DNA from: Kiritimatiellia bacterium
GTDB taxonomy: Bacteria > Verrucomicrobiota > Kiritimatiellia > JAAZAB01
Assembly: GCA_050944835.1 (NCBI GenBank)
Contig: JBMNRV010000001.1
Span: 31,212-95,211 of the forward strand
Direction: 5' to 3'
DNA: 64,000 nucleotides
Position 1 is the first letter of the stretch. The number at the start of each line of letters is the position of its first letter. Shown here one piece after another: positions 16,459 to 64,000 of this stretch. A program made the translations under genes and the position numbers. The notes beneath the pieces are model-generated. The model was not told the DNA's origin. It was given only the letters and a program-made list of their open reading frames with translations, and did not search any database.

Positions 16459-17556
16459 TTATCCTGAACGTCCTTTAATACCCTTAGTGTTTTTATCCAA
16501 CGCACGGGCCTTTTCACGAGGGCGCAACTTGCGCACGGCCAACCCAGCTTGCCACATCTCGGAGTTGCGGAGAGCGGCCAGTTCCTTCGCCACTTTTTCG
16601 GGATAATTGGCTTTCCCGCAGACGGACAGCACACGGCGGGATTCCTTGCCGGATTTCACCGCTTGGTAGAGCTCCTTAAAGACCGGCAGTGTGGCCTTCT
16701 TGAATTTGGGCTTCCAATCCAGCGCGCCGCGTTGAGCAGTGGCGGAGCAATTGGAAAACATCCAGTCCATCCCATTTTCATCCACCAGACGGATCAAGCT
16801 TTGAGTAAGCTCCTCAACCGTCTCGTTGAAAGCTTCACTGGGAGAGTGGCCGTTGGCGCGCAGAGTGTCGTATTGCGCTTCCATTACGCCGGCCAATGCG
16901 CCCATCAGCATGCCACGTTCGCCGACTAAGTCACTGTAAACTTCGCGCTCGAAGGTCGTGGGGAAGAGGTATCCCGAGCCGATACCGATACCGATAGCCA
17001 AGCAACGTTCTTCCGCACGACCGGTAGCGTCTTGGAAGACGGCGTAACTGGAATTGATGCCGGCGCCCGTCAGGAAATTACGGCGCACGGATGTGCCGGA
17101 GCCTTTGGGTGCGACCATGATTACATCCACATCGGCTGGCGGAATGACCTTCGTTTGCTTGCCATATACAATTGAGAAACCATGGGAGAAATAAAGCGCC
17201 ATGCCGGGCTTCAGATTTTTCTTCACCACCGGCCAGATTTGTTTCTGCGCGGCATCGGAAACCAGCATCTGAATGATGGTTCCTTTTTGCACGGCTTCTT
17301 CAATGTCAAACAACGTTTTGCCGGGAACCCAGCCGTCGGAGCGTGCGCGGTTCCAATCGGCTTTGAACTTGGGTGACTGCCCGACAATCACGCGCATGCC
17401 ATTGTCTTTAAGGTTGAGCGCCTGCGCCGGACCTTGCACACCGTATCCAAGCACGGCAATGGTTTCCTTAGCCAACACTTTGCGCGCGCGCGCCAATGTG
17501 AATTCCTTGCGTGTAACAACTTTTTCCTTTTCGCCGCCAAAATTAATCACAGCCAT
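16459..17556 (-). CDS. ilvC: ketol-acid reductoisomerase
   Basis: MAVINFGG start and GYGVQGPAQALNLKDNG NADPH motif. GAGGAGTGA lies upstream of the ATG at 17556. The 499-aa ORF extension runs into a repeat element. Confidence 0.9.
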   Translation of the reverse strand: MAVINFGGEKEKVVTRKEFTLARARKVLAKETIAVLGYGVQGPAQALNLKDNGMRVIVGQSPKFKADWNRARSDGWVPGKTLFDIEEAVQKGTIIQMLVSDAAQKQIWPVVKKNLKPGMALYFSHGFSIVYGKQTKVIPPADVDVIMVAPKGSGTSVRRNFLTGAGINSSYAVFQDATGRAEERCLAIGIGIGSGYLFPTTFEREVYSDLVGERGMLMGALAGVMEAQYDTLRANGHSPSEAFNETVEELTQSLIRLVDENGMDWMFSNCSATAQRGALDWKPKFKKATLPVFKELYQAVKSGKESRRVLSVCGKANYPEKVAKELAALRNSEMWQAGLAVRKLRPREKARALDKNTKGIKGRSG

Positions 17557-17685
17557 TTGATCACTCCTCTGTAAGATTGTTGGCATTAGCGCGATACTTG
17601 TATCGCGTGTGAATAAATTCAATACTATGCTTTTCACACAACAGGTCAAGCCATTAATTGGTTTACACACCGCTTTTCTGTCTGT

Positions 17686-18246
17686 CCTAAAACTGTAGCA
17701 GTTGGCAAGTTTGTCGCAGACGGAGGGGAGAACCACGGATGAACACTGATGGACACGGATGGAGGAGGGGGCGAGATAAACCGCCAAGACGCCAAGGTGG
17801 GGAAGAGGAGAATTAACCGCAGATTGCCGCAGATTAACGCAGGTTTTATCGGAGATATAAGATGACTCGAATGGCAGGCCGCGCTGTCCGCTATGCGGAC
17901 ATGGATTGGCGGACACCCAAGATACACGAATGGATTCGCGTATCAGGGTGTCAACCAATCCGCCGGACCGGCAGATGCCGGTCAGCGCGGCGCTTGAGGA
18001 TAATCCTTTCCCTAATCCATGTCTATCAGGTTAATCCGTGGTTCTTCTGCCAGTGCGGCTCGCACCTCCGTGTGAACCTCTCCTCCTCTACGTCTATCGG
18101 CGTCATCTGCGGTTACATTCTTTGTCTGTTTCTTTCCTGGTTTTCTTGGCGTCTTGGCGGTTCAATCCTATCCGTATCCATCCAGTGGTTCCTCTGGTTT
18201 TCAACACTTTATCTCGTTTCCTGAATTTCAAATACCGCTTTTAGGG
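17686..18246. mobile_element. mosaic palindromic intergenic element, full-length copy R-b (A end, D core +, B end)
   Basis: The A end CCTAAAACTGTAGCAGTTGGCAAG is on the left. The B end CAACACTTTATCTCGTTTCCTGAATTTCAAATACCGCTTTTAGGG is on the right. The arms are built of inverted word repeats. Confidence 0.8.
17883..17990 (+). repeat. D module copy 1 (conserved three-hairpin core of the mosaic element)
   Basis: GTCCGC-TAT-GCGGAC; long stem GGATTGG..GACACCC / GGGTGTC..CCAATCC around the palindrome GATACACGAATGGATTCGCGTATC; GACCGGC-AGAT-GCCGGTC. Confidence 0.8.
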
Positions 18247-23010: not shown

Positions 23011-23290
23011 AGTGTTGAGAACCGCAGATTACGCAGATTGGCGCAGATTGGGCGAGGGATACTCGTAGAAGAAGAACCACGGATGAACACTGATGGACAC
23101 TGATCACTGATGAAGGAGTGGAAGGGGTGCCCTGAAAGGGCATGACATACCCAGCTTGTGCGGCTCGCACCGCCAGTGCGGCTCGCACCGCCAGTGCGGC
23201 TCGCACTTACTGCCGTCCCTTCCGTCCCTGCTGTCCCTTCCGCCCCCTTCGCCAGTCCCCGATCAAACCCGCTTGGACTGGCCTTTCAGG
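22975..23290. repeat. mosaic element fragment R-c (B end plus arm words, no D core)
   Basis: CTAAAAACGGCATTTGAAATTCAGGAAACGAGATAAAGTGTTG, CCGCAGATTACGCAGATTGGCGCAGATTG, GAACCACGGATGAACACTGATGGACACTGAT. Confidence 0.8.
23158..23206. repeat. 18-bp tandem repeat (2.7 units), each unit containing a hairpin
   Basis: GTGCGGCTCGCACCGCCA x2 plus GTGCGGCTCGCAC. Single copies of GTGCGGCTCGCAC, or its complement, occur at about 18054 and 47089. Confidence 0.9.
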
Positions 23291-31108: not shown

Positions 31109-31246
31109 ACGCCGTCATTACCTGATCTTATTGAGCCGCCAACAACAAAACCTGAGTGGCCCAGTTGGCTGGATTGGTTGGATATTATTAGAAAAGGCTG
31201 GGATTGGATTAGGGGACGCGATTGAAATATAAACTTGAGGTTTTAT

Positions 31247-32258: not shown

Positions 32259-32610
32259 CCTAAAACTGCGGCAGTTGGCAAGTTTGTCGCAGATGCGCGG
32301 CGCGACAGAGGGGAGAACCACGGATGAACACGGATTAACACGGATGGTCTCACGGAGGAGGAGAACCGATAGACGTAGATGGTGAAGGGTAGCCCTTTAT
32401 AAGGGCGTAACATAGTTGTGTTCAATCCCCGATATCCCAAGACGTTGCCCTGAATTTCTATGTCACGCCCTTTCAGGGCTGTTTTCATGTTTTCCCGTTA
32501 ATCCCAGGGCGTTGCCCTAGGCTGGGTATGTCATGCCCTTTCAGGTCCCCGCCAGACCCCGAATTTAACCCGCGCGGACTGGTTTTTGATTAATGGCCGG
32601 ATTTTTTGAC
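32259..32610. repeat. mosaic element block R-d (A end, arm words, then an inverted copy of the 11.1-11.3 kb hairpin block)
   Basis: CCTAAAACTGCGGCAGTTGGCAAGTTTGTCGCAGATGCGCGG, GAACCACGGATGAACACGGATTAACACGGATGG, GCCCTTTCAGGGC hairpins. Confidence 0.8.
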
Positions 32611-43031: not shown

Positions 43032-43112
43032 CCTAAAACTGCGGCAGTTGGCAAGTTTGTCGCAGATGCGCGGCATTAGCCCCAACGGGGCGTGACATAC
43101 CCCGTTGGGGCT
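43032..43112. repeat. mosaic element fragment R-e (A end) ending in a perfect 13-bp hairpin
   Basis: CCTAAAACTGCGGCAGTTGGCAAGTTTGTCGCAGATGCGCGG, then AGCCCCAACGGGG-CGTGACATA-CCCCGTTGGGGCT (43078-43112). Confidence 0.85.
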
Positions 43113-43128
43113 AGTTCAATCGCACCAC

Positions 43129-43317
43129 AAACGTGTCATAAACGTATCAATCGTATCATAAACGCGCCATAAACGTATCATAAACGTGTCATAAACGTAT
43201 CAAACGTATCATAAACGTATCATAAACGCGTCATAAACGTATCAAACGTATCATAAACGTATCATAAACGCGTCATAAACGTATCAAACGTATCATAAAC
43301 GTATCATAAACGCATCA
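43129..43317. repeat. 10/11-bp tandem array (about 18 units) with a 42-bp higher-order period
   Basis: The units are variants of AAACGTATCAT / AAACGCGTCAT / AAACGTATCA. The block AAACGTATCA-AACGTATCAT-AAACGTATCAT-AAACGCGTCAT repeats about 3 times. Confidence 0.95.
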
Positions 43318-43447
43318 CGTTGAGTTCAAGACGACTGATAGGTGCCCATTTTTTTATGGACAAGTTGCAGAGTATCGCCATAATGTTGACAAAATAATGT
43401 AAGAAAATTAAAAAAAGATTTGCAACTTTATACAGGAGCAGCGCTCA

Positions 43448-43909
43448 ATGCAACTTACTGATACACAAAAAGCGACAGTCGCGCAGTGGGTGAATGATGG
43501 ATGTACGCTGGCGGAACTCCAGCGCAAAATCAACGAGGAGTTCAATCTTTCACTTACCTTTATGGACGTGCGTTTATTGGTGCTTGATCTGAACTTGGAA
43601 ATTAGGGACCAGGCAACAGTGGGTGGTACGGTGGACTTGTCAAAACCGCCACCTGTGTCTGCTTCAAACATAAGCGAAGACGGGCATCTGGCCGGCGGGG
43701 TATCAGTTTCCCTTGATCGCATCGTCAAGCCCGGCGCCGTTGTCAGTGGTCAGGTTACTTTTAGTGACGGGGTCAGCGCTGAGTGGATGTTGGATCAAAT
43801 GGGGCGGTTGGGGTTGAGCGCCACGCAGCCGGGGTATCGCCCGAGCCAGGAGGATTTGCAGTCTTTCCAAGAGGAGTTGGCGAAGCTGTTGCAGTCGCAG
43901 GGGATGTGA
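43448..43909 (+). CDS. hypothetical protein (153 aa)
   Basis: GGAG lies before the ATG and the composition looks coding. I recognise no family. Confidence 0.55.
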   Translation: MQLTDTQKATVAQWVNDGCTLAELQRKINEEFNLSLTFMDVRLLVLDLNLEIRDQATVGGTVDLSKPPPVSASNISEDGHLAGGVSVSLDRIVKPGAVVSGQVTFSDGVSAEWMLDQMGRLGLSATQPGYRPSQEDLQSFQEELAKLLQSQGM

Positions 43910-43915
43910 GGCTGA

Positions 43916-44130
43916 GGGAAGAACCACGGATAGACACGGATGGACACTGATGTGTTGGAAAAAGGAAAGGCGATAGCAAAAGAAGATGTTTATAGAGCAG
44001 GGTGTCAACCGATCCGCCAGACTGGCAGATGCTGGTTAGCGTGGCGTAAGTTATGCAATCTGAAAATCTTGCTTCTTCCTGGCTCCGTGTTTGTCCGTGT
44101 TCTGGTTCCTCTTGTTCTCAACATTTAATC
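43916..44130. repeat. mosaic element fragment R-f (arm words plus right half of the D core)
   Basis: GAACCACGGATAGACACGGATGGACACTGATG; half D core at 43999-44047 (AGGGTGTCAACCGATCCGCCAGACTGGCAGATGCTGGTTAGCG). Confidence 0.75.
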
Positions 44131-45165
44131 AGAGGTATAGAAATACAGGCTCTCTCTATATTACGCCGCTCTCCGCGGGGAGCCCATCGCGCCGAGTTTG
44201 GCTACAGTAAGGTTTTTCCGGCGACCGCCCTTTTCCCAACCGGAGCCAACCGGCTTTTTGTCGGCGATAATCTGCGCGTCATGCAAAGTCTGCCGAGCGG
44301 CTCAATTGACCTTATTTACCTTGATCCGCCGTTCTGTTCCGGGCGTAATTACAATGCCGTTGTCGGCGGCAAAAAGAAAGTCCGCTATTTCTCAGATACT
44401 TGGTGCGGCGGTATGGCGGAGTATATTGTTTGGCTCAATGTCCGGCTTTGTGAGATGAAACGGTTGCTGTCCGCTAAGGGCACGCTCTTTGCTCACCTGG
44501 ATCGTCGGGCTGTGCATTACGTGAAATGCGAACTCGATAAAATTTTTGGTTCAGATAGATTTATCAACGAGATTATTTGGCACTATACCGGAGGCGGACG
44601 TAGCAAGTCCTGCTTCTCCAATAAGCATGATACCATCCTCTGGTATTCCAAAGGGGATGTCTGGACGTTTAACATTAACGATGTTCGTGTGCCCTATAAA
44701 GACACCAGTGGATACGCCAAGCGGGGCATCGTCGGGGTTTCCGGCAAAAAATACATGCCGCATCCCAACGGAACTCCGGTTGACGATGTCTGGGATATCC
44801 CGATAATTAACCCGCTTTCGCCTGAACGCGTCGGTTACCCAACCCAGAAGCCGGAGCAGTTGCTTGAGCGCATCATTAAAGCCGCATCGTCTGAAGGTGA
44901 TGTCGTTGCTGATTTCTTCTGCGGCAGCGGAACCACGCTTGTCGTGGCGCAACGCCTGAATCGCCGTTGGGTAGGGTGTGACCGATTGCGTCTTGCAACG
45001 ACGATTACCGCCAACCGGATAACACGCGCGATAGAGGACAAACTTTGCAAGCGGTTTCCCGTGCCAGATTATACCATTGAGCCTTGTTGCGCTTGTAAAT
45101 CGCATCCGGATAAAGGCGGGCGCGGAGCTGCGGGGTACAAGGGTGGTCGGGGCGGAGGGATTTGA
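44053..45165 (+). CDS. beta-class (N6/N4) DNA methyltransferase, apparently solitary
   Basis: Motif [11 protein letters not shown] comes before motif I FFCGSGTT, and [13 protein letters not shown] is present. The start is uncertain: the ATG at 44053 lies inside repeat R-f and the next ATG is at 44281. The stop lies inside tRNA-Pro. Confidence 0.75.
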
Positions 45166-45220
45166 ACCCTCGACCTTTTGGTCCCGAACCAAACGCGCTA
45201 CCAGTCTGCGCTACGCCCCG
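45144..45220 (-). tRNA. tRNA-Pro (anticodon CGG), CCA encoded
   Basis: Hand-folded cloverleaf: CGGGGCG TA GCGC AGACTGGTA GCGC G TTTGG TTCGGGA CCAAA AGGTC GAGGG TTCAAAT CCCTC CGCCCCG A CCA. Confidence 0.9.
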
Positions 45221-45301: not shown

Positions 45302-46744
45302 TTACTTCAGTGGGATTACAATGAAGCGGGATGATTGCTGATCGCGCACGAGCACCAGCAGCATACTGGATTGCGCGGACTGTGTCAGCGCCGCGTTGAA
45401 TTCTTCTACATTGTTTACCTCGCGGTGGTTGACCGCAGTGATCAGGTGTCCGGGCTGGATACCGGCTTGGGCCGCCGGACTGTCGGGCCGGACGCGCGTT
45501 ACCAGCACACCGTTGTCGGTGTAGCCGAAACGCTGCGCCCACTGCGGCGTCAGGTCTTCCACTGCCAAACCGATTTTTTCGCTGATCGCGGTCGGCGATA
45601 GCGGCGTTCCCGCCCCGCCTTCCTGGCTGCCGACTTTCACTTTGAGTTCGATGCGCTTTTCGTCACGCCAGATGGTCAGATTAATAACAGTGCCCGGCGC
45701 CGTCATAGCAATCATATTACGGAAAGCTCCGGTGCCGTCCACGCTTTTGCCGTTTGTTTCGAGAACGATGTCACCGATACGGATACCGGCATTTTCGGCG
45801 GCGGCCCCCTTACTCACACCGGATATCAGCACCCCGCGCGACTGTGGGCACTTGAACTGTTCGGCCAGCTCAGGCGTCAAATCCTGAATGATCACACCCA
45901 GAAAGCCGCGGGTTATTGTGCCACCGGTCATCAACTGCTCTTTGATTTTCATCGCCATATTGATCGGAATGGAAAAACCGATGCCCAGCGAGCCGCCCAT
46001 CTGGCTGAAAATGGCGGTGTTGATGCCGATGACCTTGCCTTCAATGTTTAGTAACGGGCCGCCTGAATTGCCAGGGTTGATAGCAGCGTCGGTTTGGATG
46101 AAATCCTCGTAGTCGGTGATACCAATGTTGTTACGCCCCTTGGCGCTTACTACACCGACGGTCAGTGTTTCGGAGAACCCGAATGGATTTCCTATCGCGA
46201 TGACCCATTCTCCAATCTCAATTGCGTCGGAATCACCGATCGGCAACACTGGGAAATCATCGCCCGCGATTTTCACCAGCGCGACTTCCGAGCGCGGGTC
46301 ACTGCCTACAAGTTCGGCCTGAAACTCGCGCCCATCGTGCGTCCGCACGGTAATGCGGTCGGCATCGCCAACAATATGGTTGTTCGTCAGGATATAGCCG
46401 TCCTTAGTGACAATAAACCCGGTCCCCGTGCCTGTTTGGCGTAAACGCTGTTCCGGCGCCGGCATTTGTCGCTGCCGAATCCCGAAAAGCTGTTCCAGTA
46501 ATTCGTTTGGGTCTAACCCATGCGGCAGACCGGCAGGCTGGGTCACGGTCTTTTCCACACGGATAAACACTACTGCTGGCATAGCTTGGCGCGCAACGGC
46601 GGCAAAGGCTTTGGATGTCTGACGTAACGCCTGTGTTTCCTGCGAAAGCTCCTGCGTCGTCGCGACGCATTCTGGAACCGGGGTTGCCGACAATAAGATG
46701 GCTGTCATAAGGATGGCAATGGGAAGATTAATTGATGTTTTCAT
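45302..46744 (-). CDS. htrA: periplasmic serine endoprotease, DegP/HtrA (Do) family, two PDZ domains
   Basis: The ATG at 46744 gives a signal peptide, MKTSINLPIAILMTAILLSA. Also TNNHIV, DSDAIEIGEW and GNSGGPLLN catalytic motifs. Confidence 0.9.
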   Translation of the reverse strand: MKTSINLPIAILMTAILLSATPVPECVATTQELSQETQALRQTSKAFAAVARQAMPAVVFIRVEKTVTQPAGLPHGLDPNELLEQLFGIRQRQMPAPEQRLRQTGTGTGFIVTKDGYILTNNHIVGDADRITVRTHDGREFQAELVGSDPRSEVALVKIAGDDFPVLPIGDSDAIEIGEWVIAIGNPFGFSETLTVGVVSAKGRNNIGITDYEDFIQTDAAINPGNSGGPLLNIEGKVIGINTAIFSQMGGSLGIGFSIPINMAMKIKEQLMTGGTITRGFLGVIIQDLTPELAEQFKCPQSRGVLISGVSKGAAAENAGIRIGDIVLETNGKSVDGTGAFRNMIAMTAPGTVINLTIWRDEKRIELKVKVGSQEGGAGTPLSPTAISEKIGLAVEDLTPQWAQRFGYTDNGVLVTRVRPDSPAAQAGIQPGHLITAVNHREVNNVEEFNAALTQSAQSSMLLVLVRDQQSSRFIVIPLK

Positions 46745-46883
46745 AATATCTCCGAATGTTTGTTGAATGCAAAATGCAGCAAATATCGCCAGAATCGCCA
46801 GATAGGCGTTGTGACGGCATCTCTGGAAGAGACAAAAAGCAATTTTAATCAAAAAGCCGTTTTGTGCAACACAAAACAGTGGG

Positions 46884-47496
46884 TCTAAAACTGCGACAGT
46901 TGGCAAGTTTGTAGCAGATGCGCGGCACGACGGAGGGGAGAACCACGGATGAACACTGATTAACACTGATGGTCGCACGGAGGAGGAGAACCGGTTGACG
47001 CAGATGGTGAAAGGGAGCCCTTGTAAGGGCGTGACAGAGGCAGTGAGGAACACGGATTAGTACACGAAGGGGCGGAGAACACGGAGGTGCGAGCCGCACT
47101 GGCAAGGACGGAAAGAAATTAGCCACAAAAATGCACACAATGCACACAAAGAAAAAGCTACAGAAAAAGAGAAAGTTTGTTGGGCTGGAGTGGCAGGCTG
47201 CGCTGTCCGCTATGCGGACATGGATCAGTGGACACCCGGATACACGAATTAATTCGCGTATAAGGGTGTCAGCCGATCCGCCAGACCGGCAAATGCCGGT
47301 CAGCGCAGCATGCGTTCGTGTTCTGAAAAAACTTGTGAATCTTGGTGCTAATTATCCGGGATCTGCGTCAATCTGCGGTTTCTTTCTTGGCGTCCTTGGC
47401 GGTTCAATCTTATCAGTGTCCATCCATGTTCATCCGTGGTTCCTCTGGGCCTCAACATTTTATCTCGTTTCCTGAATTTCAAATGCCGTTTTTAGG
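46884..47496. mobile_element. mosaic palindromic element, full-length copy R-g (A end, D core +, B end)
   Basis: TCTAAAACTGCGACAGTTGGCAAG ... CAACATTTTATCTCGTTTCCTGAATTTCAAATGCCGTTTTTAGG. Confidence 0.8.
47202..47315 (+). repeat. D module copy 2
   Basis: GCTGTCCGCTATGCGGACATGGATCAGTGGACACCCGGATACACGAATTAATTCGCGTATAAGGGTGTCAGCCGATCCGCCAGACCGGCAAATGCCGGTCAGCGCAGCATGCGT. Confidence 0.85.
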
Positions 47497-47570
47497 TGAG
47501 CCTTTTACGGGTATGCCTGAAAGTGGAAAAGTGGTTTTCTGAATTAGCCCACAACGCCCTTTCAGGGCAA

Positions 47571-49588: not shown

Positions 49589-49665
49589 TGGTCGGAGCGG
49601 CGGGATTTGAACCCGCGACCTTTTGCACCCCAAGCAAACGCGCTACCAGTCTGCGCTACGCCCCG
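49589..49665 (-). tRNA. tRNA-Pro (anticodon GGG), CCA encoded
   Basis: CGGGGCG TA GCGC AGACTGGTA GCGC G TTTGC TTGGGGT GCAAA AGGTC GCGGG TTCAAAT CCCGC CGCTCCG A CCA. Confidence 0.9.
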
Positions 49666-49721: not shown

Positions 49722-50311
49722 CCTAAAACGGCATTTGAAATTCAGGAAACGAGATAAAGTGTTGGAACCGCAGATTTACGCAGATTGGCGCAGATTGTGA
49801 GAGGGATACGCGGAGAAGAGGAACTACGGATGTACACGGATGTAGGAAATGAAACCGCAGATGAACGCAGATTGACGCAGATGAGGATGGAAAGAACCAC
49901 GGATTCACACGGATGGACACGGATTAGGGAAAAGATCATCTATAAATGCCACGCTGTCCGCTATGCGGGCTTGGATCGGTGGACACCCGGATACACGAAT
50001 GAATTCGCGTATCAGGGTGTCAGCCGATCCGTCAGACCGGCAGATGCCGGTCTGCGCAGCATGCGTGGTTAATCCATTTCCTAATACGTATCTACTATCC
50101 ATCCAGTTCTTTCCTCCGTGTTCTCTGCGTCTCCGTGTGAGCTTCTCCGCCTCTGCGTCCATCTGCGTAATCTGCGGTTTTATTCTTCGTCTGTTTTTTG
50201 GCATTCTTGGGCAGTTTAAACCAAATCCGTGTTAATCCGTGTTCATCCGTGGTTCTCCCCTCCGTCGCGCCGCGCATCTGCGACAAACTTGCCAACTGCC
50301 GCAGTTTTAGG
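49722..50311. mobile_element. mosaic palindromic element, full-length copy R-h (B end left, D core +, A end right)
   Basis: CCTAAAACGGCATTTGAAATTCAGGAAACGAGATAAAGTGTTGG ... GCGCATCTGCGACAAACTTGCCAACTGCCGCAGTTTTAGG. Confidence 0.8.
49953..50066 (+). repeat. D module copy 3
   Basis: Has the same three hairpins; the third stem is extended to 9 bp (CAGACCGGC-AGAT-GCCGGTCTG). Confidence 0.85.
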
Positions 50312-50393: not shown

Positions 50394-51401
50394 ATGGGTA
50401 TGAAAACCAAATTGAAACTCAAAGGGCGCAGCTTGCTGAAACTGGCTGACCTCTCAACTGATGAGATGCTTGGCTTGTTGGATTTGGCGGATCAATTGAA
50501 GCGCATGAAGTCTTTGGGCATACGCGGCGACCGCCTGAGCCGCATGAGTATTGCCTTGGTTTTCGAAAAGGCATCTACCCGCACCAGATCGGCTTTTACC
50601 GTCGCTGCGGCGGATGAGGGTGGTAGCGCGGCGTACCTCAGCTCCCGTGATATTCATTTCGGCAGCAAGGAGTCTATTAAGGATAGCGCGCGGGTGCTGG
50701 GGCGGATGTATGATGGCATCCAGTTCCGTGGGTTTAAGCAGGAAACGGTGGAAATTCTGGCACGCTATGCAGGTGTGCCGGTGTGGAACGGTTTGACGGA
50801 CGAATTCCATCCGACCCAGGCGCTGGCGGATTTGATGACCATTCGCGAATACTTCCGTGTGCTGAAGGGTATCAAGGTGGTTTTTATCGGTGATGGGCGC
50901 AATAACGTATGCACTTCGTTGATGACAGGTTGTGCCATGGCTGGGGCGCATTTCGTGGATTGTACCCCAAAAGAGCTTGTGCCAGGTGAAGGCATCCTTG
51001 CGGAAGCGCGCCGGTTGGCCGGCGCCAATGATGCGACGGTGACGATATCCCATGACCCGTCAGAAGCTGTACGTGGAGCAAATGTAATCTATACCGACGT
51101 CTGGGTTTCCATGGGCGAGGAGGGACAGTTTCAGGAGCGTTGCCGGCTGTTAATGCCTTATCAGGTTAATATGCCGCTGATGCGCCAAACCGGTAATTTG
51201 GAGAATAACAGCGTGATTTTCCTGCATTGCCTACCGGCTTTGCATAATCACGAGACGGAGTTAACTCGCGAGACTGGCGCTTTGGAGGTGACGGAGGATG
51301 TGTTTGAGGCGCCTTTTTCGAGGGTATTTGACCAGTCGGAGAACCGCTTGCATACCATTAAAGCGGTGATGGTGGCAACATTGACGGACCTGGAGGAATA
51401 A
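50394..51401 (+). CDS. argF: ornithine carbamoyltransferase
   Basis: EKASTRTRSAF, HPTQALADL and FLHCLPA motifs. Confidence 0.9.
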   Translation: MGMKTKLKLKGRSLLKLADLSTDEMLGLLDLADQLKRMKSLGIRGDRLSRMSIALVFEKASTRTRSAFTVAAADEGGSAAYLSSRDIHFGSKESIKDSARVLGRMYDGIQFRGFKQETVEILARYAGVPVWNGLTDEFHPTQALADLMTIREYFRVLKGIKVVFIGDGRNNVCTSLMTGCAMAGAHFVDCTPKELVPGEGILAEARRLAGANDATVTISHDPSEAVRGANVIYTDVWVSMGEEGQFQERCRLLMPYQVNMPLMRQTGNLENNSVIFLHCLPALHNHETELTRETGALEVTEDVFEAPFSRVFDQSENRLHTIKAVMVATLTDLEE

Positions 51402-53825: not shown

Positions 53826-54794
53826 TTATGTCTCCATTTTAAAGACCTGGCGGATATTGCCGCCGGTCACTTTGTTGATGGTTATATTGTCTAACCCCCA
53901 AGCGGGCAACAGTTCTTCAACCAGTTGGCGGTAAAGGCATAGAGATGGAAAGCCTGATGCATACGGTGCGTAAAGTTTTTCAACCAGCGCATGGGGCGCA
54001 TGATCGCTCTCAATCCAGTTGATTTCACCGTTTTTTAGAGCATTGCGCAGAGCTGCGACATCCGCTGCCGTCCGCAATGGCGGGTTGACTTTATACAACA
54101 GGCCCGCAGGTCCCAGCATCTGTTCCGCAGACCACAACAAGTGATGCGGAGTGACGCCGCAAGTGATAGTCAAGGGTGTGGCGTCAGCTGCTTGGCGGGC
54201 ATGACGGATGGCGTCCAGCGCCGCGGCGGATGAGACATGGCAAATGTGCAAAGTCCCGGAAAATCCCGCCTCGCATGCGCAGTTAACTTGATCGGTAATG
54301 GAAGCTGCTTCCGCTTCCGGTGGGCGGGCGTCGCCATGAGAGGCAGGCTGTGCCGGGTCAAAAACGTTACGCAATAGCGAAGGTTTTTCACAGTGTACCG
54401 CCAGAACTCCAGCAAATCCGTTCTCCGCCAATGTGTGATAAATCAGGGCTTGCTCCGCTATATCGCCGACGGTCAAAGGGCCGACGGATGGGCCGGCATA
54501 GAGTTTCAGTCCGGCGACATAGGATGGATGCGCAGTTGCCAGGGCGGCTGCCAGACGCAGTTGCGCCGGATCGGCGGTGACGCCGATGAAGGTTTTGTAA
54601 CGCCCACGCGCAGAGCTGGGGACCAAAGCCAGCCGCCGCTCCAAATCCGCCTCGGTCAGCAGTGGCGGGGTGGTATTTGGCATATCGAAAATCATATCCA
54701 CGCCCTGTTGATCGCACAGGGTGAAAACATGGGCGATGGTCTCTTTATAGGATTCGCAGCCGTCGCGGCAATGCACATGCGGATCTATTTTCAA
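53826..54794 (-). CDS. pyrC: dihydroorotase (short, E. coli-like type); start uncertain
   Basis: KIDPHVHCRDG metal-binding motif right at the N-terminus. I chose the TTG at 54794 because it overlaps the upstream stop as TTGA. The longest ORF (to 54929) would overlap the upstream gene by 139 nt. Confidence 0.7.
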   Translation of the reverse strand: MKIDPHVHCRDGCESYKETIAHVFTLCDQQGVDMIFDMPNTTPPLLTEADLERRLALVPSSARGRYKTFIGVTADPAQLRLAAALATAHPSYVAGLKLYAGPSVGPLTVGDIAEQALIYHTLAENGFAGVLAVHCEKPSLLRNVFDPAQPASHGDARPPEAEAASITDQVNCACEAGFSGTLHICHVSSAAALDAIRHARQAADATPLTITCGVTPHHLLWSAEQMLGPAGLLYKVNPPLRTAADVAALRNALKNGEINWIESDHAPHALVEKLYAPYASGFPSLCLYRQLVEELLPAWGLDNITINKVTGGNIRQVFKMET

Positions 54795-55558
54795 TTGGCC
54801 TGCCGCTCCAGTTCGGGTTGGTATTGTTTGTAAAACGCGATGATTTTTAACGCTCTGCTCCGGGTTTGAGCGCCTTGCAACATCCGATGCAACGGTTCTG
54901 GATAGCGTTTCAGGCGATCCAGCGCCCAAGCTAATGGGTCTTGCCGGCGAGCCAATAGGGCGGCATGTGTCTCCTTGGAAACGTACCCGTCTTCCAAGGC
55001 GATTTGCCAGGCGGCTTGATCCAGCGGTACGACGGATGCTAATGGCAACTTTAATTCGCGCATGACATTCAAACCTTCTTCCATGCGGTCAACGAATGAT
55101 GCCACGCCGACTATCTTGCCGCCACGGCGTGCTACCAGTGGCTGCCAATAATCGCGGACGGATGAACCCTCGTTGTTTAAATCCACCACATGCAGCACCC
55201 GTTGGCCGTTGAGGTCGGCGCCCAGTATTCGCCCGTCCTTGTAAATTTTAATATGCGGTTTGCGCATGGCGACGGCGCATGGATTGGAAAAATCCCAGTC
55301 GCGGGTTTCGCCGCCGGCGATCACATCAAATTCAATTCCCCAATCCCGGATTAATTTGACCAGCGATTCAATTGCTGTGGCATAGGCTTCGCCGTCTTTT
55401 TCAATGTTTACGCTTTGAACATAATAAGGGCCGATTTGCCCGGATGTGTAAGGGAACCAAGGGGTGTGCTCATCAATGAAACGGAATCCGTCAGCCTGCA
55501 GCAACCGCCGGAGATTGACGGCCTGCAGTTCCCGATTAATGTAAATTTGATCTGACAT
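54791..55558 (-). CDS. phosphoribosyltransferase, orotate PRTase-like (atypically long, 255 aa)
   Basis: The ATG at 55558 gives MSDQIYINREL. PRPP loop VLHVVDLNNEGSS. The 441-aa ORF extension lies in repeat R-i. Confidence 0.65.
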   Translation of the reverse strand: MSDQIYINRELQAVNLRRLLQADGFRFIDEHTPWFPYTSGQIGPYYVQSVNIEKDGEAYATAIESLVKLIRDWGIEFDVIAGGETRDWDFSNPCAVAMRKPHIKIYKDGRILGADLNGQRVLHVVDLNNEGSSVRDYWQPLVARRGGKIVGVASFVDRMEEGLNVMRELKLPLASVVPLDQAAWQIALEDGYVSKETHAALLARRQDPLAWALDRLKRYPEPLHRMLQGAQTRSRALKIIAFYKQYQPELERQAN

Positions 55559-55640
55559 AGTTGTGCGCACAATCAAAGGCATCAATATATACCAGGGTGG
55601 TACAATACACCAAGCGCTGGCGGAAATCAATTCAGCAGTT

Positions 55641-56208
55641 TGTGTTTGGCGCAGATTCACGGCATCATACTGGGGGGAGAACCACGGATGGACACGGATG
55701 AACACTGATAACGGAGAGAGGAACCGCCAAGACGCCAAAAACGCCAAGGGGGGAGGAAAACGAAACAGAGATCTCACGCAGAGGCGCGGAGACGCAGAGA
55801 AGAGGTGCCGCAGATGGTCGCAGATTAACGCAGATTTTACCAGAGATACTGGCTGACTAAAATGGCATGTCGCGCTGTCCGCTATGCGGACATGGATCGG
55901 CGGATACCCGGATACACGAATTAATTCGCGTATCAGGGTATCAACCGATCCGCCAGACCGGCAGATGCCGGTCAGCACAGCATGCGTTAATCTGAAAATC
56001 TTGTGGCTACCCTCTTTCCAGTCTTCCCCTCTTGTGCTAATTCTGTTCCCTAAATTTCCTCCTCCGTGATCTCCGTGTCTCCGTGTGAGACTCTCTGGTT
56101 CATCATCAGTGTCCATCAGTGTTCATCCGTGGTTCCTTTCCTGTATTTGTGGTTTCATTTTATCTCGTTTCCATTTTTAGGGTAAACTTGCCAATTGCCG
56201 AATATAGG
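55641..56208. mobile_element. mosaic palindromic element R-i (degenerate left end, D core +, B end, extra inverted A-end fragment)
   Basis: GAACCACGGATGGACACGGATGAACACTGAT, CCGCCAAGACGCCAAAAACGCCAAGG ... CATTTTATCTCGTTTCCATTTTTAGGG TAAACTTGCCAATTGCCGAATATAGG. Confidence 0.75.
55874..55987 (+). repeat. D module copy 4
   Basis: The stem pair GATACCC / GGGTATC replaces GACACCC / GGGTGTC (a double, pairing-preserving change). Confidence 0.85.
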
Positions 56209-56223
56209 TTAAAATATCGCTCA

Positions 56224-61578: not shown

Positions 61579-62158
61579 CCTAAAACTGCGGCAGTTGGCA
61601 AAACAGAGGTTTAGCCACAAAAAGGCAAGAAGCACAAGGAGGAAGGACGGAGGAATTGAACCGCCAAGAACGCCAAGAAAGAAACAGACAAGAATGAAAC
61701 CGCAGATAGGCGCAGATTGACGCAGAGGCGGGGAAGCTCACACGGAGACGCAGAGAACACGGAGGAAAGAACCGGATGGAAAGTAGATACGTATTAGGAA
61801 ATGGATTAACCACGCCTGCCGCGCTGACCGGCATCTGCCGGTCTGACGGATCGGCTGACACCCTGATACGCGAATTCATTCGTGTATCCGGGTGTCCACC
61901 GATCCATGTCCGCATAGCGGACAGCGTGGCATTTATAGATGATCTTTTCCCTAATTCGTGTCTATCCTCTCCATGATCTCTGTGTTGTCATCCTATTCCG
62001 TCCACCCTTAGCGTTCTTGGCGCCTTGGCGGTTCAATCCTATTAGTGTCCATCCGGTTCCTCTTCTCCGAGTATCCCTCTCCCAATCTGTGCCAATCTGC
62101 GTAAATCTGTGGTTCCACCGTTTTATCTCGTTTCCTGAATTTCAAATGCCGTTTTAAG
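61579..62158. mobile_element. mosaic palindromic element, full-length copy R-j (A end, D core -, B end)
   Basis: CCTAAAACTGCGGCAGTTGGCAAAAC ... CCACCGTTTTATCTCGTTTCCTGAATTTCAAATGCCGTTTTAAG. Confidence 0.8.
61812..61925 (-). repeat. D module copy 5 (reverse orientation)
   Basis: The reverse complement matches copy 3 almost exactly, including the flanks TTAGGGAAAAGATCATCTATAAATGCCAC and GGTTAATCCATTTCCTAATACGTATCTAC. Confidence 0.85.
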
Positions 62159-63926: not shown

Positions 63927-63956
63927 ATCAGTCCCTCTATTGATTCAGTGTGTTGT

Positions 63957-64000
63957 CTTAAAAAAACGGCAGTTGGTAAGTTTGTCGTGGATACGGCGGG
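63957..64000. repeat. start of another mosaic element (A-type end), truncated by the window edge
   Basis: CTTAAAAAAACGGCAGTTGGTAAGTTTGTCGTGGATACGGCGGG resembles CCTAAAACTGCGGCAGTTGGCAAGTTTGTCGCAGATGCGCGG. Confidence 0.6.

Follow-up and report, generated by a model that had tools for sequence, protein, structure and literature searches.

The described systems closest to the repeats reported here are two groups of miniature inverted-repeat transposable elements (MITEs), namely, Correia/NEMIS in Neisseria and ERIC/IRU in enterobacteria, and the palindromic REP/BIME/REPIN elements. We analyzed a stretch of 64,000 nucleotides (the window) from a Kiritimatiellia bacterium (GenBank assembly GCA_050944835.1, contig JBMNRV010000001.1, forward-strand positions 31,212 to 95,211), with a focus on the intergenic element at window positions 49722-50311 and on the module at its center, termed D, in which three hairpins (H1, H2, and H3) are enclosed by a fourth helix (P1). 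The analysis indicates that D is probably the conserved central hairpin cluster of non-coding, non-autonomous, foldback-type MITE-like interspersed repeats that are carried by a Kiritimatiellia lineage of anaerobic digesters. These repeats have defined termini (CCTAAAAC...GTTTTAGG), fold back with D at the tip, are dispersed among unrelated housekeeping loci and, in some cases, are flanked by direct repeats of 7-8 bp.

Like the Correia and ERIC MITEs, the elements are short, non-coding, multi-copy, and intergenic, and they can fold into a hairpin over their whole length; terminal inverted repeats, apparent target-site duplications in some copies, and possibly promoter-like ends are further shared features. 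In size (below ~800 bp), non-coding nature, copy number (5 copies in 64 kb), dispersal, and possession of terminal inverted repeats, they conform to what is expected of MITEs. They differ from the Correia and ERIC elements in being 4-5 times longer and in having arms that are mosaics of 8-10-nt tandem units rather than a simple inverted repeat. Furthermore, their best-conserved part is a central four-way junction, which occurs in both orientations, and no parent insertion sequence is known.

REP/BIME/REPIN elements are mobilized by RAYT (TnpA-REP) transposases (Bertels & Rainey 2011, PMC3116915; Di Nocera et al. 2013, PMC3733652). A REP is recognized as a palindrome of 20-40 nt tagged by GTAG or CGTC, and REPs are found mostly downstream of coding regions (PMC3733652). 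The present family resembles them in consisting of extragenic palindromes within mosaic elements, with maintained hairpin pairing, occurrence in both orientations, and a proposed recognition of single-stranded DNA hairpins. The REP tag does not define these copies: GTAG is absent, and CGTC precedes H3 in 5 of 19 copies, the others having CGCC. In place of a REP doublet there is H2, a single hairpin of 58 nt; apparent target-site duplications accompany some of the copies, most of the elements are located upstream of genes, and the loci fetched revealed no RAYT gene.

Two eukaryotic and viral systems are alike in form. Foldback (FB) transposons of Drosophila and other eukaryotes are kilobase-sized, with long inverted arms of short tandem repeats and a center that is often rearranged or inverted; the tandem-repeat arms around a central domain make this an architectural analogy only, and no homology is suggested. 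In the T-shaped terminal hairpins of parvoviruses and adeno-associated virus, an outer stem surrounds smaller hairpins in flip and flop orientations. D also has an outer stem that encloses hairpins and an interior found in two inverted configurations, again an analogy of form and not homology; it differs in being internal to a chromosomal repeat, in having three inner hairpins instead of two, and in lacking a Rep-type gene or nick site. Our literature search did not turn up any account of such repeats for Kiritimatiellia or Verrucomicrobia.

D forms a four-way junction

The original prediction, made from the window alone, was of five full copies and one half copy of a conserved 114-nt core with three hairpins. 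When the 24-nt near-palindrome of this core, GATACACGAATTAATTCGCGTATC, was searched with up to 3 mismatches, exactly the five predicted sites were retrieved from the window (0 expected in shuffled sequences), and the half copy was found at 43998-44053. Neither blastn, nhmmer, nor a covariance model (R1) detected further copies in the window, the covariance model adding none to the set of nhmmer. In the alignment of the full copies and the half copy the three hairpins are present as described; what had been overlooked is P1, a helix of ~12 bp formed by GCATGCCGCGCT on the left and AGCGCGGCATGC on the right, just outside the limits first assigned to the core. P1 encloses the three hairpins, resulting in a four-way junction and a D unit of ~122 nt; taken as an inverted repeat, it measures 12-13 bp and surrounds a segment of ~100 bp. 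Copy 5, predicted at 61812-61925, proved to lie on the minus strand. The feature under study is copy 3, the limits of which are based on alignments, RNA folds, and the RNAalifold consensus.

17874-17995, plus strand: D copy 1, in element 17686-18245 (E1 ... E2rc; for these end modules see below)
47193-47313, plus strand: D copy 2, in element 46884-47496
49944-50064, plus strand: D copy 3
49944-49955: P1-left of copy 3
49956-49970: H1 of copy 3
49973-50030: H2 of copy 3
50035-50052: H3 of copy 3
50053-50064: P1-right of copy 3
55865-55985, plus strand: D copy 4, in element ~55668-56181, left terminus missing
61814-61934, minus strand: D copy 5, in element 61579-62158, between convergent genes
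43998-44053, plus strand: truncated D (the half copy), which retains only the H2 3' arm, H3, and P1-right

Single-sequence folding recovered the four-way junction in every copy, and the same structure was obtained as the RNAalifold consensus of 19 sequences. The fold energies of the D copies range from -74 to -81 kcal/mol, with RNA z-scores from -8.4 to -11.1, and D folds equally well on both strands, far better than expected by chance. The half copy, for which the covariance-model score was only 17.5 bits, is part of a rearranged element with an E1 module at its start (43028).

The variation noted among the window copies was confirmed by the alignment. Copy 1 has a private compensated T:A at columns 36:86 (GGATTGG/CCAATCC), along with a 1-nt insertion, and copy 4 a compensated T:A at columns 43:79 (GATACCC/GGGTATC), both being pairing-preserving changes as had been claimed. 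The uncompensated mismatch reported for copy 2 is present as well, as A·C (37:85) and G·A (50:73) in H2, and the H3 loop of this copy reads AAAT. It had also been stated that the module is much better conserved than its arms; indeed, only the core aligns colinearly between the window copies, at 85-93% identity, whereas the arms match in patches, often in the opposite orientation. We also observed the sequence GATC in both outer arms of H2 (GGATCGG/CCGATCC, 49973-49979/50024-50030), at equivalent positions in all copies; the double change of copy 1 abolishes both GATC sites together.

D is the apex of a larger foldback element

What the original prediction missed is the larger context, in which D forms the tip of a transposon-like foldback element. 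Each full copy lies at the center of an intergenic element of 560-610 bp that starts with CCTAAAAC and ends with GTTTTAGG, the terminal inverted repeats being CCTAAAAC(N)GC...GC(N)GTTTTAGG. Two end modules were distinguished, namely, E1 (CCTAAAACTGCGGCAGTTGGCAAGTTTGTCGCAGATG) and E2 (CCTAAAACGGCATTTGAAATTCAGGAAACGAGATAAAG). Short tandem units with periods of 8-10 nt (such as CACGGATnnn, CGCAGATnnn, and CGCCAAGA) make up the mosaic of the left arm, and their reverse complements are found in the right arm. In single-strand folds of whole elements the termini are paired with each other, the arms are paired, and D is at the tip (z = -6.8 for copy 2 and -11.8 for copy 3).

49722-50311, plus strand: element carrying copy 3, in the order terminus CCTAAAAC (E2 type), left arm of 10-nt CGCAGAT/CACGGAT unit arrays, D, right arm of complementary units, and end GTTTTAGG (E1 type, reverse-complemented)
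17686-17722: E1 end module
32259-32300: E1 end module
43032-43075: E1 end module
46884-46925: E1 end module
61579-61605: E1 end module
63953-64000: E1 end module
50270-50311: E1 end module, reverse-complemented
56184-56215: E1 variant of copy 4 (right end) that forms TTGCCA-16-TAAAAT and immediately precedes dinB

Within E1, a sigma-54-like motif (TGGCAAGTTTGTCGCA) faces inward, and an outward-facing -35-like TTGCCA is present on the other strand. A sequence similar to the variant next to copy 4, TTGCCA...TTTAAT, was read by eye at 2150-2200 of locus L006, one of the related contigs described in the next section. These promoter-like motifs keep on the table a host regulatory role, which would be one of the elements and not of D specifically. 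E1 is also present without a D module, for example at 32259 upstream of clpB.

Relatives are found in Kiritimatiellia

A scan of 185,579 species genomes for the exact pattern returned one true relative, L001, in a Kiritimatiellia metagenome-assembled genome (MAG) from an anaerobic membrane bioreactor. The corresponding scan of metagenomes also returned one, L004; two further matches (L002 and L003) were discarded as unrelated AT-rich palindromes that match by chance. There were 0 matches in viral contigs by the pattern scan, and no match in plasmids and phages by blastn with the whole element.

More relatives were obtained by way of protein databases. Three reading frames across D have no stop codon in most copies, and two of them are open in all copies. 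The concatenated translations of the three frames, used as a query, retrieved 51 clusters of "hypothetical proteins" from ENA/JGI metagenomes or from an NCBI Kiritimatiellia MAG (locus tags ACOYCD_*). We rejected the D frames as real genes: variation follows the structure, with no clear third-codon pattern or conserved start, and the open reading frames (ORFs) were treated as spurious. All named sources of relatives are Kiritimatiellia, and one contig is labeled anaerobic digester metagenome. Together with the window copies, the ~140 kb of related contigs gathered provided 19 distinct full cores and three degraded ones, the copies being 85-95% identical. Parts of the window region were assembled independently as L005 and L008, the sequences of which agree fully with the window at copies 3, 4, and 5. 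L001 and L014 represent a different lineage, in which D is ~80-85% identical, the arms differ, and the termini read CCGGAAA(A)CGGA.., possibly a diverged form of CCTAAAACGGCA... This retention appears to single out the center as the part that is kept.

Evidence for dispersal as a transposon-like unit

The left arms of L004 and L010 are ~99% identical and start exactly at the CTAAAAC terminus; the DNA outside is unrelated, and the right arms differ. Both flanks of L006a carry TTTATGCC (8/8 match), those of L010 carry CGCTTGCC and GGCTTGCC (7/8 match), and those of L009b carry GTCCAGC and GTCCAGG (6/7 match). As a null, the left flank of one element was compared with the right flank of another, and no more than 6/8 positions matched in 56 trials. 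Target-site duplications of 7-8 bp are present in only 2-3 of the 8 elements with both termini.

No transposase, invertase, or RAYT gene is linked to the elements in the fetched loci, where the neighbors are housekeeping genes. No recombinase gene was present nearby either, the one gene of note being that for a 126-aa HTH_7-domain protein next to a degraded copy in L006. Insertion of D as a separate unit was considered and rejected: the sole candidate for an "empty" arm, L006 3180-3440, breaks inside P1 and is a deletion derivative.

Pairing is probably maintained through changes typical of DNA inverted repeats

Among the 19 sequences, 93% of the pair cells hold standard pairs, and 7 pairs are changed on both sides (0 of 500 shuffles). 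The covariation term of RNAalifold on these sequences is negligible, amounting to -0.49 of -66.1 kcal/mol, and the almost invariant stems of H1 and H3 contain no double changes, so that covariation is untestable in them. Wobble-type deviations read as G·U on the plus strand in 19 events and on the minus strand in 12, a count that includes the conserved A·C of the central palindrome, and there is no significant strand preference. In tandem-gene contexts D is in sense orientation in 4 cases and in antisense in 2. Its orientation with respect to GC skew (10:7) shows no bias, which rules out a replication-strand bias of the IS200/IS605 or REP kind.

Inversions were observed at several scales. The flanks of L008n and of L009b/c align only as reverse complements (83% over 311 nt), whereas the core aligns forward; the core is likewise inverted relative to the same flanks between window copies 2 and 3, and the unit is flipped relative to the E1/E2 ends between L006a and copy 2. 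The H3 loop is AGAT in most copies and ATCT, the exact reverse complement, in L010 and L009b. Deletions were observed as well, with H2 excised at its stem base in L006 1311-1392 and half of H2 lost in L004. At columns 43:79 compensation can be followed stepwise, from C:G through T·G (L007) to T:A (copy 4).

Template-switch mutation is known from hairpin-associated small inversions in the loops of chloroplast non-coding hairpins and from quasipalindrome "correction" in E. coli. When template switching and recombination act on inverted repeats in DNA, they are known to invert loops, "correct" stems, and excise hairpins. D resembles these cases in the exact reverse-complementing of a loop (AGAT to ATCT), the restoration of complementarity in one step, and the deletion of a hairpin at its base. 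Because loop inversion, stem correction, and hairpin excision together account for them, the pairing-preserving changes need no RNA. Template switching is a mutational process and not an element family; it explains the pattern of variation and not the origin of D.

The original prediction had offered two readings of the module, a structured RNA or a cruciform recognized by a protein. The former gained no support. At the gathering threshold, Rfam recognized only two tRNAs in the window, and at E<=10 the region around copy 4 gave only chance-level matches. Inspection of the flanks showed no conserved promoter or terminator bracketing D. Covariation does not appear to go beyond what gene conversion in a palindrome predicts, the compensations being accompanied by loop inversion, core inversion, and hairpin excision. 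A reading of D as a structured RNA gene or small RNA is thus not supported. The cruciform or hairpin reading stays plausible: recognition of the folded DNA by a protein would fit the substitution pattern, and no partner protein was found.

Constraint probably acts on propagation

Overall, stem columns are 5-10 times less variable than loop, bulge, and junction columns. This difference is confined to variants that are shared between copies. Private substitutions, seen in one copy, occur at 0.23 per column in stems and 0.17 in unpaired positions (p = 0.77), whereas variants shared by at least two copies occur at 0.068 and 0.52 per column, respectively (p = 6e-6), an ~8-fold depletion in stems; the comparison comprises only 19 sequences, and some of the shared variants may stem from strain orthology and not from transposition. 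Inserted copies decay regardless of pairing, and multi-copy lineages rarely carry stem changes. That shared variants avoid stems and private ones do not is consistent with constraint on propagation rather than on individual loci. The avoidance of stems by propagated variants suggests that the hairpins matter for copying the element. Such a pattern would be expected of a selfish element that needs its hairpins for copying and would not be expected of a structure that the host needs at each locus.

We propose that a transposase provided in trans copies the element and that the hairpins of D, as DNA structures that are symmetric with respect to strand (hairpins in single-stranded DNA or a cruciform), would favor propagation in cis. 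They may nucleate the formation of a foldback or cruciform, or the mobilizing protein may bind them. Each copy, once inserted, would drift neutrally, and pairing-preserving changes, loop inversions, and D flips would arise by template switching and recombination in DNA inverted repeats and not by selection on an RNA.

Several points weigh against this interpretation of D as the center of a MITE-like repeat. Target-site duplications are absent from 5 of the 8 elements with two termini, including all four such window copies. The ~200 kb examined from this lineage contained neither an autonomous element nor a transposase with matching ends, and no clean empty site was found, the best candidate being the deletion derivative at L006 3180-3440. 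The excess of elements upstream of genes, described below, would also fit a host regulatory role, and slow or weak purifying selection at each locus could produce a similar stem depletion. Ordinary MITEs are constrained at their ends and not at the center, and we know of no established precedent for a cis role of a central module. The evidence for the putative cis role consists of substitution patterns in 19 sequences.

Neighboring genes and placement

Copy 3 is found between a tRNA gene and a biosynthetic gene.

49589-49665, minus strand: tRNA-Pro(GGG), left neighbor of the copy 3 element, 57 nt away
50394-51401, plus strand: ornithine carbamoyltransferase gene, right neighbor of the copy 3 element

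The neighbors of the window elements are ordinary housekeeping genes, including ilvC, a histidine kinase gene, htrA, amidohydrolase genes, tRNA-Pro, the ornithine and aspartate carbamoyltransferase genes, dinB, purB, purA, a Ser/Thr kinase gene, and the formate-THF ligase gene. For the 16 copies with both neighbors known, 8 are between divergent, 6 between tandem, and 2 between convergent genes, as compared with a random ratio of ~1:2:1 (p ~0.05, hand-computed chi-square). Elements thus tend to lie upstream of genes, with 14 of the 16 copies upstream of at least one gene.

Some elements adjoin small RNA genes: tRNA-Pro(GGG) at copy 3, tRNA-Asn by the degraded L006 copy, and the tmRNA gene by L009b. 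The small RNA gene sites near elements are as follows.

45144-45220 of the window
49589-49665 of the window
959-1033 of L006
8772-9120 of L009

Directly downstream of the truncated D there is a DNA methyltransferase gene (N6_N4_Mtase, E = 2e-48; ~44350-45165, plus strand), and no restriction partner was present among the neighboring ORFs checked.

Alternative explanations

Use of D by the host as a cis-acting RNA is possible, if rather unlikely. D would be cotranscribed in long 5' untranslated regions or intergenic transcripts as a very stable four-way junction or long duplex and would serve in mRNA stabilization or decay, e.g., as an RNase III target, or in attenuation, as proposed for ERIC and Correia. 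The predicted folds are indeed very stable (-74 to -81 kcal/mol, z ~-9), stems are overall less variable than loops, at least one gene lies downstream of 14 of the 16 copies, 8 of which are flanked by divergent genes, and the element ends are promoter-like, as in the outward -35 TTGCCA and the sigma-54-like TGGCAAGTTTGTCGCA of E1. This role is difficult to reconcile with the two orientations that D assumes toward transcription as well as toward its own arms, the negligible covariation term, and the persistence of derivatives without H2; moreover, private substitutions are not depleted in stems.

A bolder form of the mobile-element interpretation, which we regard as unlikely, is that D is the functional heart of an undescribed class of bacterial foldback mobile elements and is recognized as folded DNA by a structure-specific transposase or recombinase. 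If true, recognition of folded DNA would explain why the center and not the ends is conserved across lineages, why D flips, and why variants that break stems do not propagate.

Distinctly unlikely is that D has no cis function and is a neutral filler in a young repeat family, in which recent copies and template switching mimic conservation. The 85-95% identity of the copies, the even distribution of singletons over stems and loops, and the template-switch signatures would all be expected in that case. The ~8-fold depletion of shared variants in stems (p = 6e-6) would not, nor would the ~80-85% identity of D in the second lineage (L001 and L014) despite other arms and termini; furthermore, the H1 and H3 stems contain no double changes, some of which unconstrained conversion should fix.

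A further, decidedly improbable explanation concerns double-stranded DNA. D could contain a site for an operator or nucleoid protein on its 24-bp palindrome, or it could be a P1-flanked inverton that switches neighboring promoters. The palindrome, GATACACGAATnnATTCGCGTATC, is nearly invariant, including a conserved A·C asymmetry; a 58-bp palindrome, on the other hand, far exceeds the usual length of an operator, and no regulator or invertase gene is linked to the elements. The 12-13-bp inverted repeat P1 does surround a ~100-bp segment found in both orientations, and placement is biased to promoter-containing intergenic regions, yet both orientations are seen only between different loci, and three loci in two independent assemblies (L005 and L008 versus the window) are identical in orientation and sequence. 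Inversion extends even to a loop of 4 nt, an indication of template switching mediated by hairpins and not of a site-specific enzyme.

Finally, it is scarcely credible that D is an independent multi-copy small-RNA gene of ~115-125 nt with its own promoter and defined 3' end since, for all its compact cloverleaf-like four-way junction, its invariant H1 and H3 stems with variable loops, and the -10-like TAAAAT or TATAAA that some flank types carry 5-8 nt before P1 (e.g., 55836-55863), it has no Rfam match even at E<=10, other flank types are without promoter-like sequence, no terminator-like site was found, both strands fold equally with G·U-type deviations that have no strand preference, and the module is inverted relative to its flanks among copies.

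Other repeats in the window

The window harbors repeats of other kinds. The segment 23000-31100 is a low-GC island (41-49% versus ~54%) with small plus-strand ORFs, mostly without a Pfam match (exceptions are FMN_red and FGE-sulfatase), that are separated by a second repeat family with ends that are inverted copies of TTGGGGTCAGTCAAGTTTTTTTGTGATTTCA (families D6 and D9). The arrangement is reminiscent of a cassette array, or else of an island strewn with copies of another MITE. At 43118-43349, the 11-nt unit AAACGTATCAT is repeated in tandem ~18 times, with a higher-order period of 42 nt (98% identity); this array is preceded by an E1 end module and a GC hairpin, and downstream of it there is a 153-aa ORF without a Pfam match (43448-43909). 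Three tandem copies of GTGCGGCTCGCACCGCCA are present at 23160-23215. Short hairpin modules, GCCCTTTCAGGGC or GCCCCAACGGGGC followed by GTGACATACCC, form another REP-like family that is interleaved with the foldback elements.

32385-32550: short hairpin modules
43075-43115: short hairpin modules
47010-47040: short hairpin modules
47540-47570: short hairpin modules
23125-23150: short hairpin modules

Implications

In this uncultured Kiritimatiellia lineage the repeats occupy many intergenic regions and lead to erroneous gene calls. Window ORFs that are extended into elements or lie wholly inside them are found at 54791-56116 (minus), 16459-17958 (minus), 45302-47053 (minus), 44053-45165 (plus), and 61580-61915 (minus); such ORFs are false N-terminal extensions of real genes and false small proteins. 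At least 51 "hypothetical proteins" in the databases are translations of the hairpin core, that is, gene-caller artifacts that mark copies of the element. D is also a clear case in which pairing-preserving substitutions in a palindrome should not be taken as RNA covariation. A bacterial foldback repeat in which a central four-way junction is conserved rather than the ends is unusual, and, if the junction is needed for mobility, this would imply structure-guided recognition of DNA by an enzyme.

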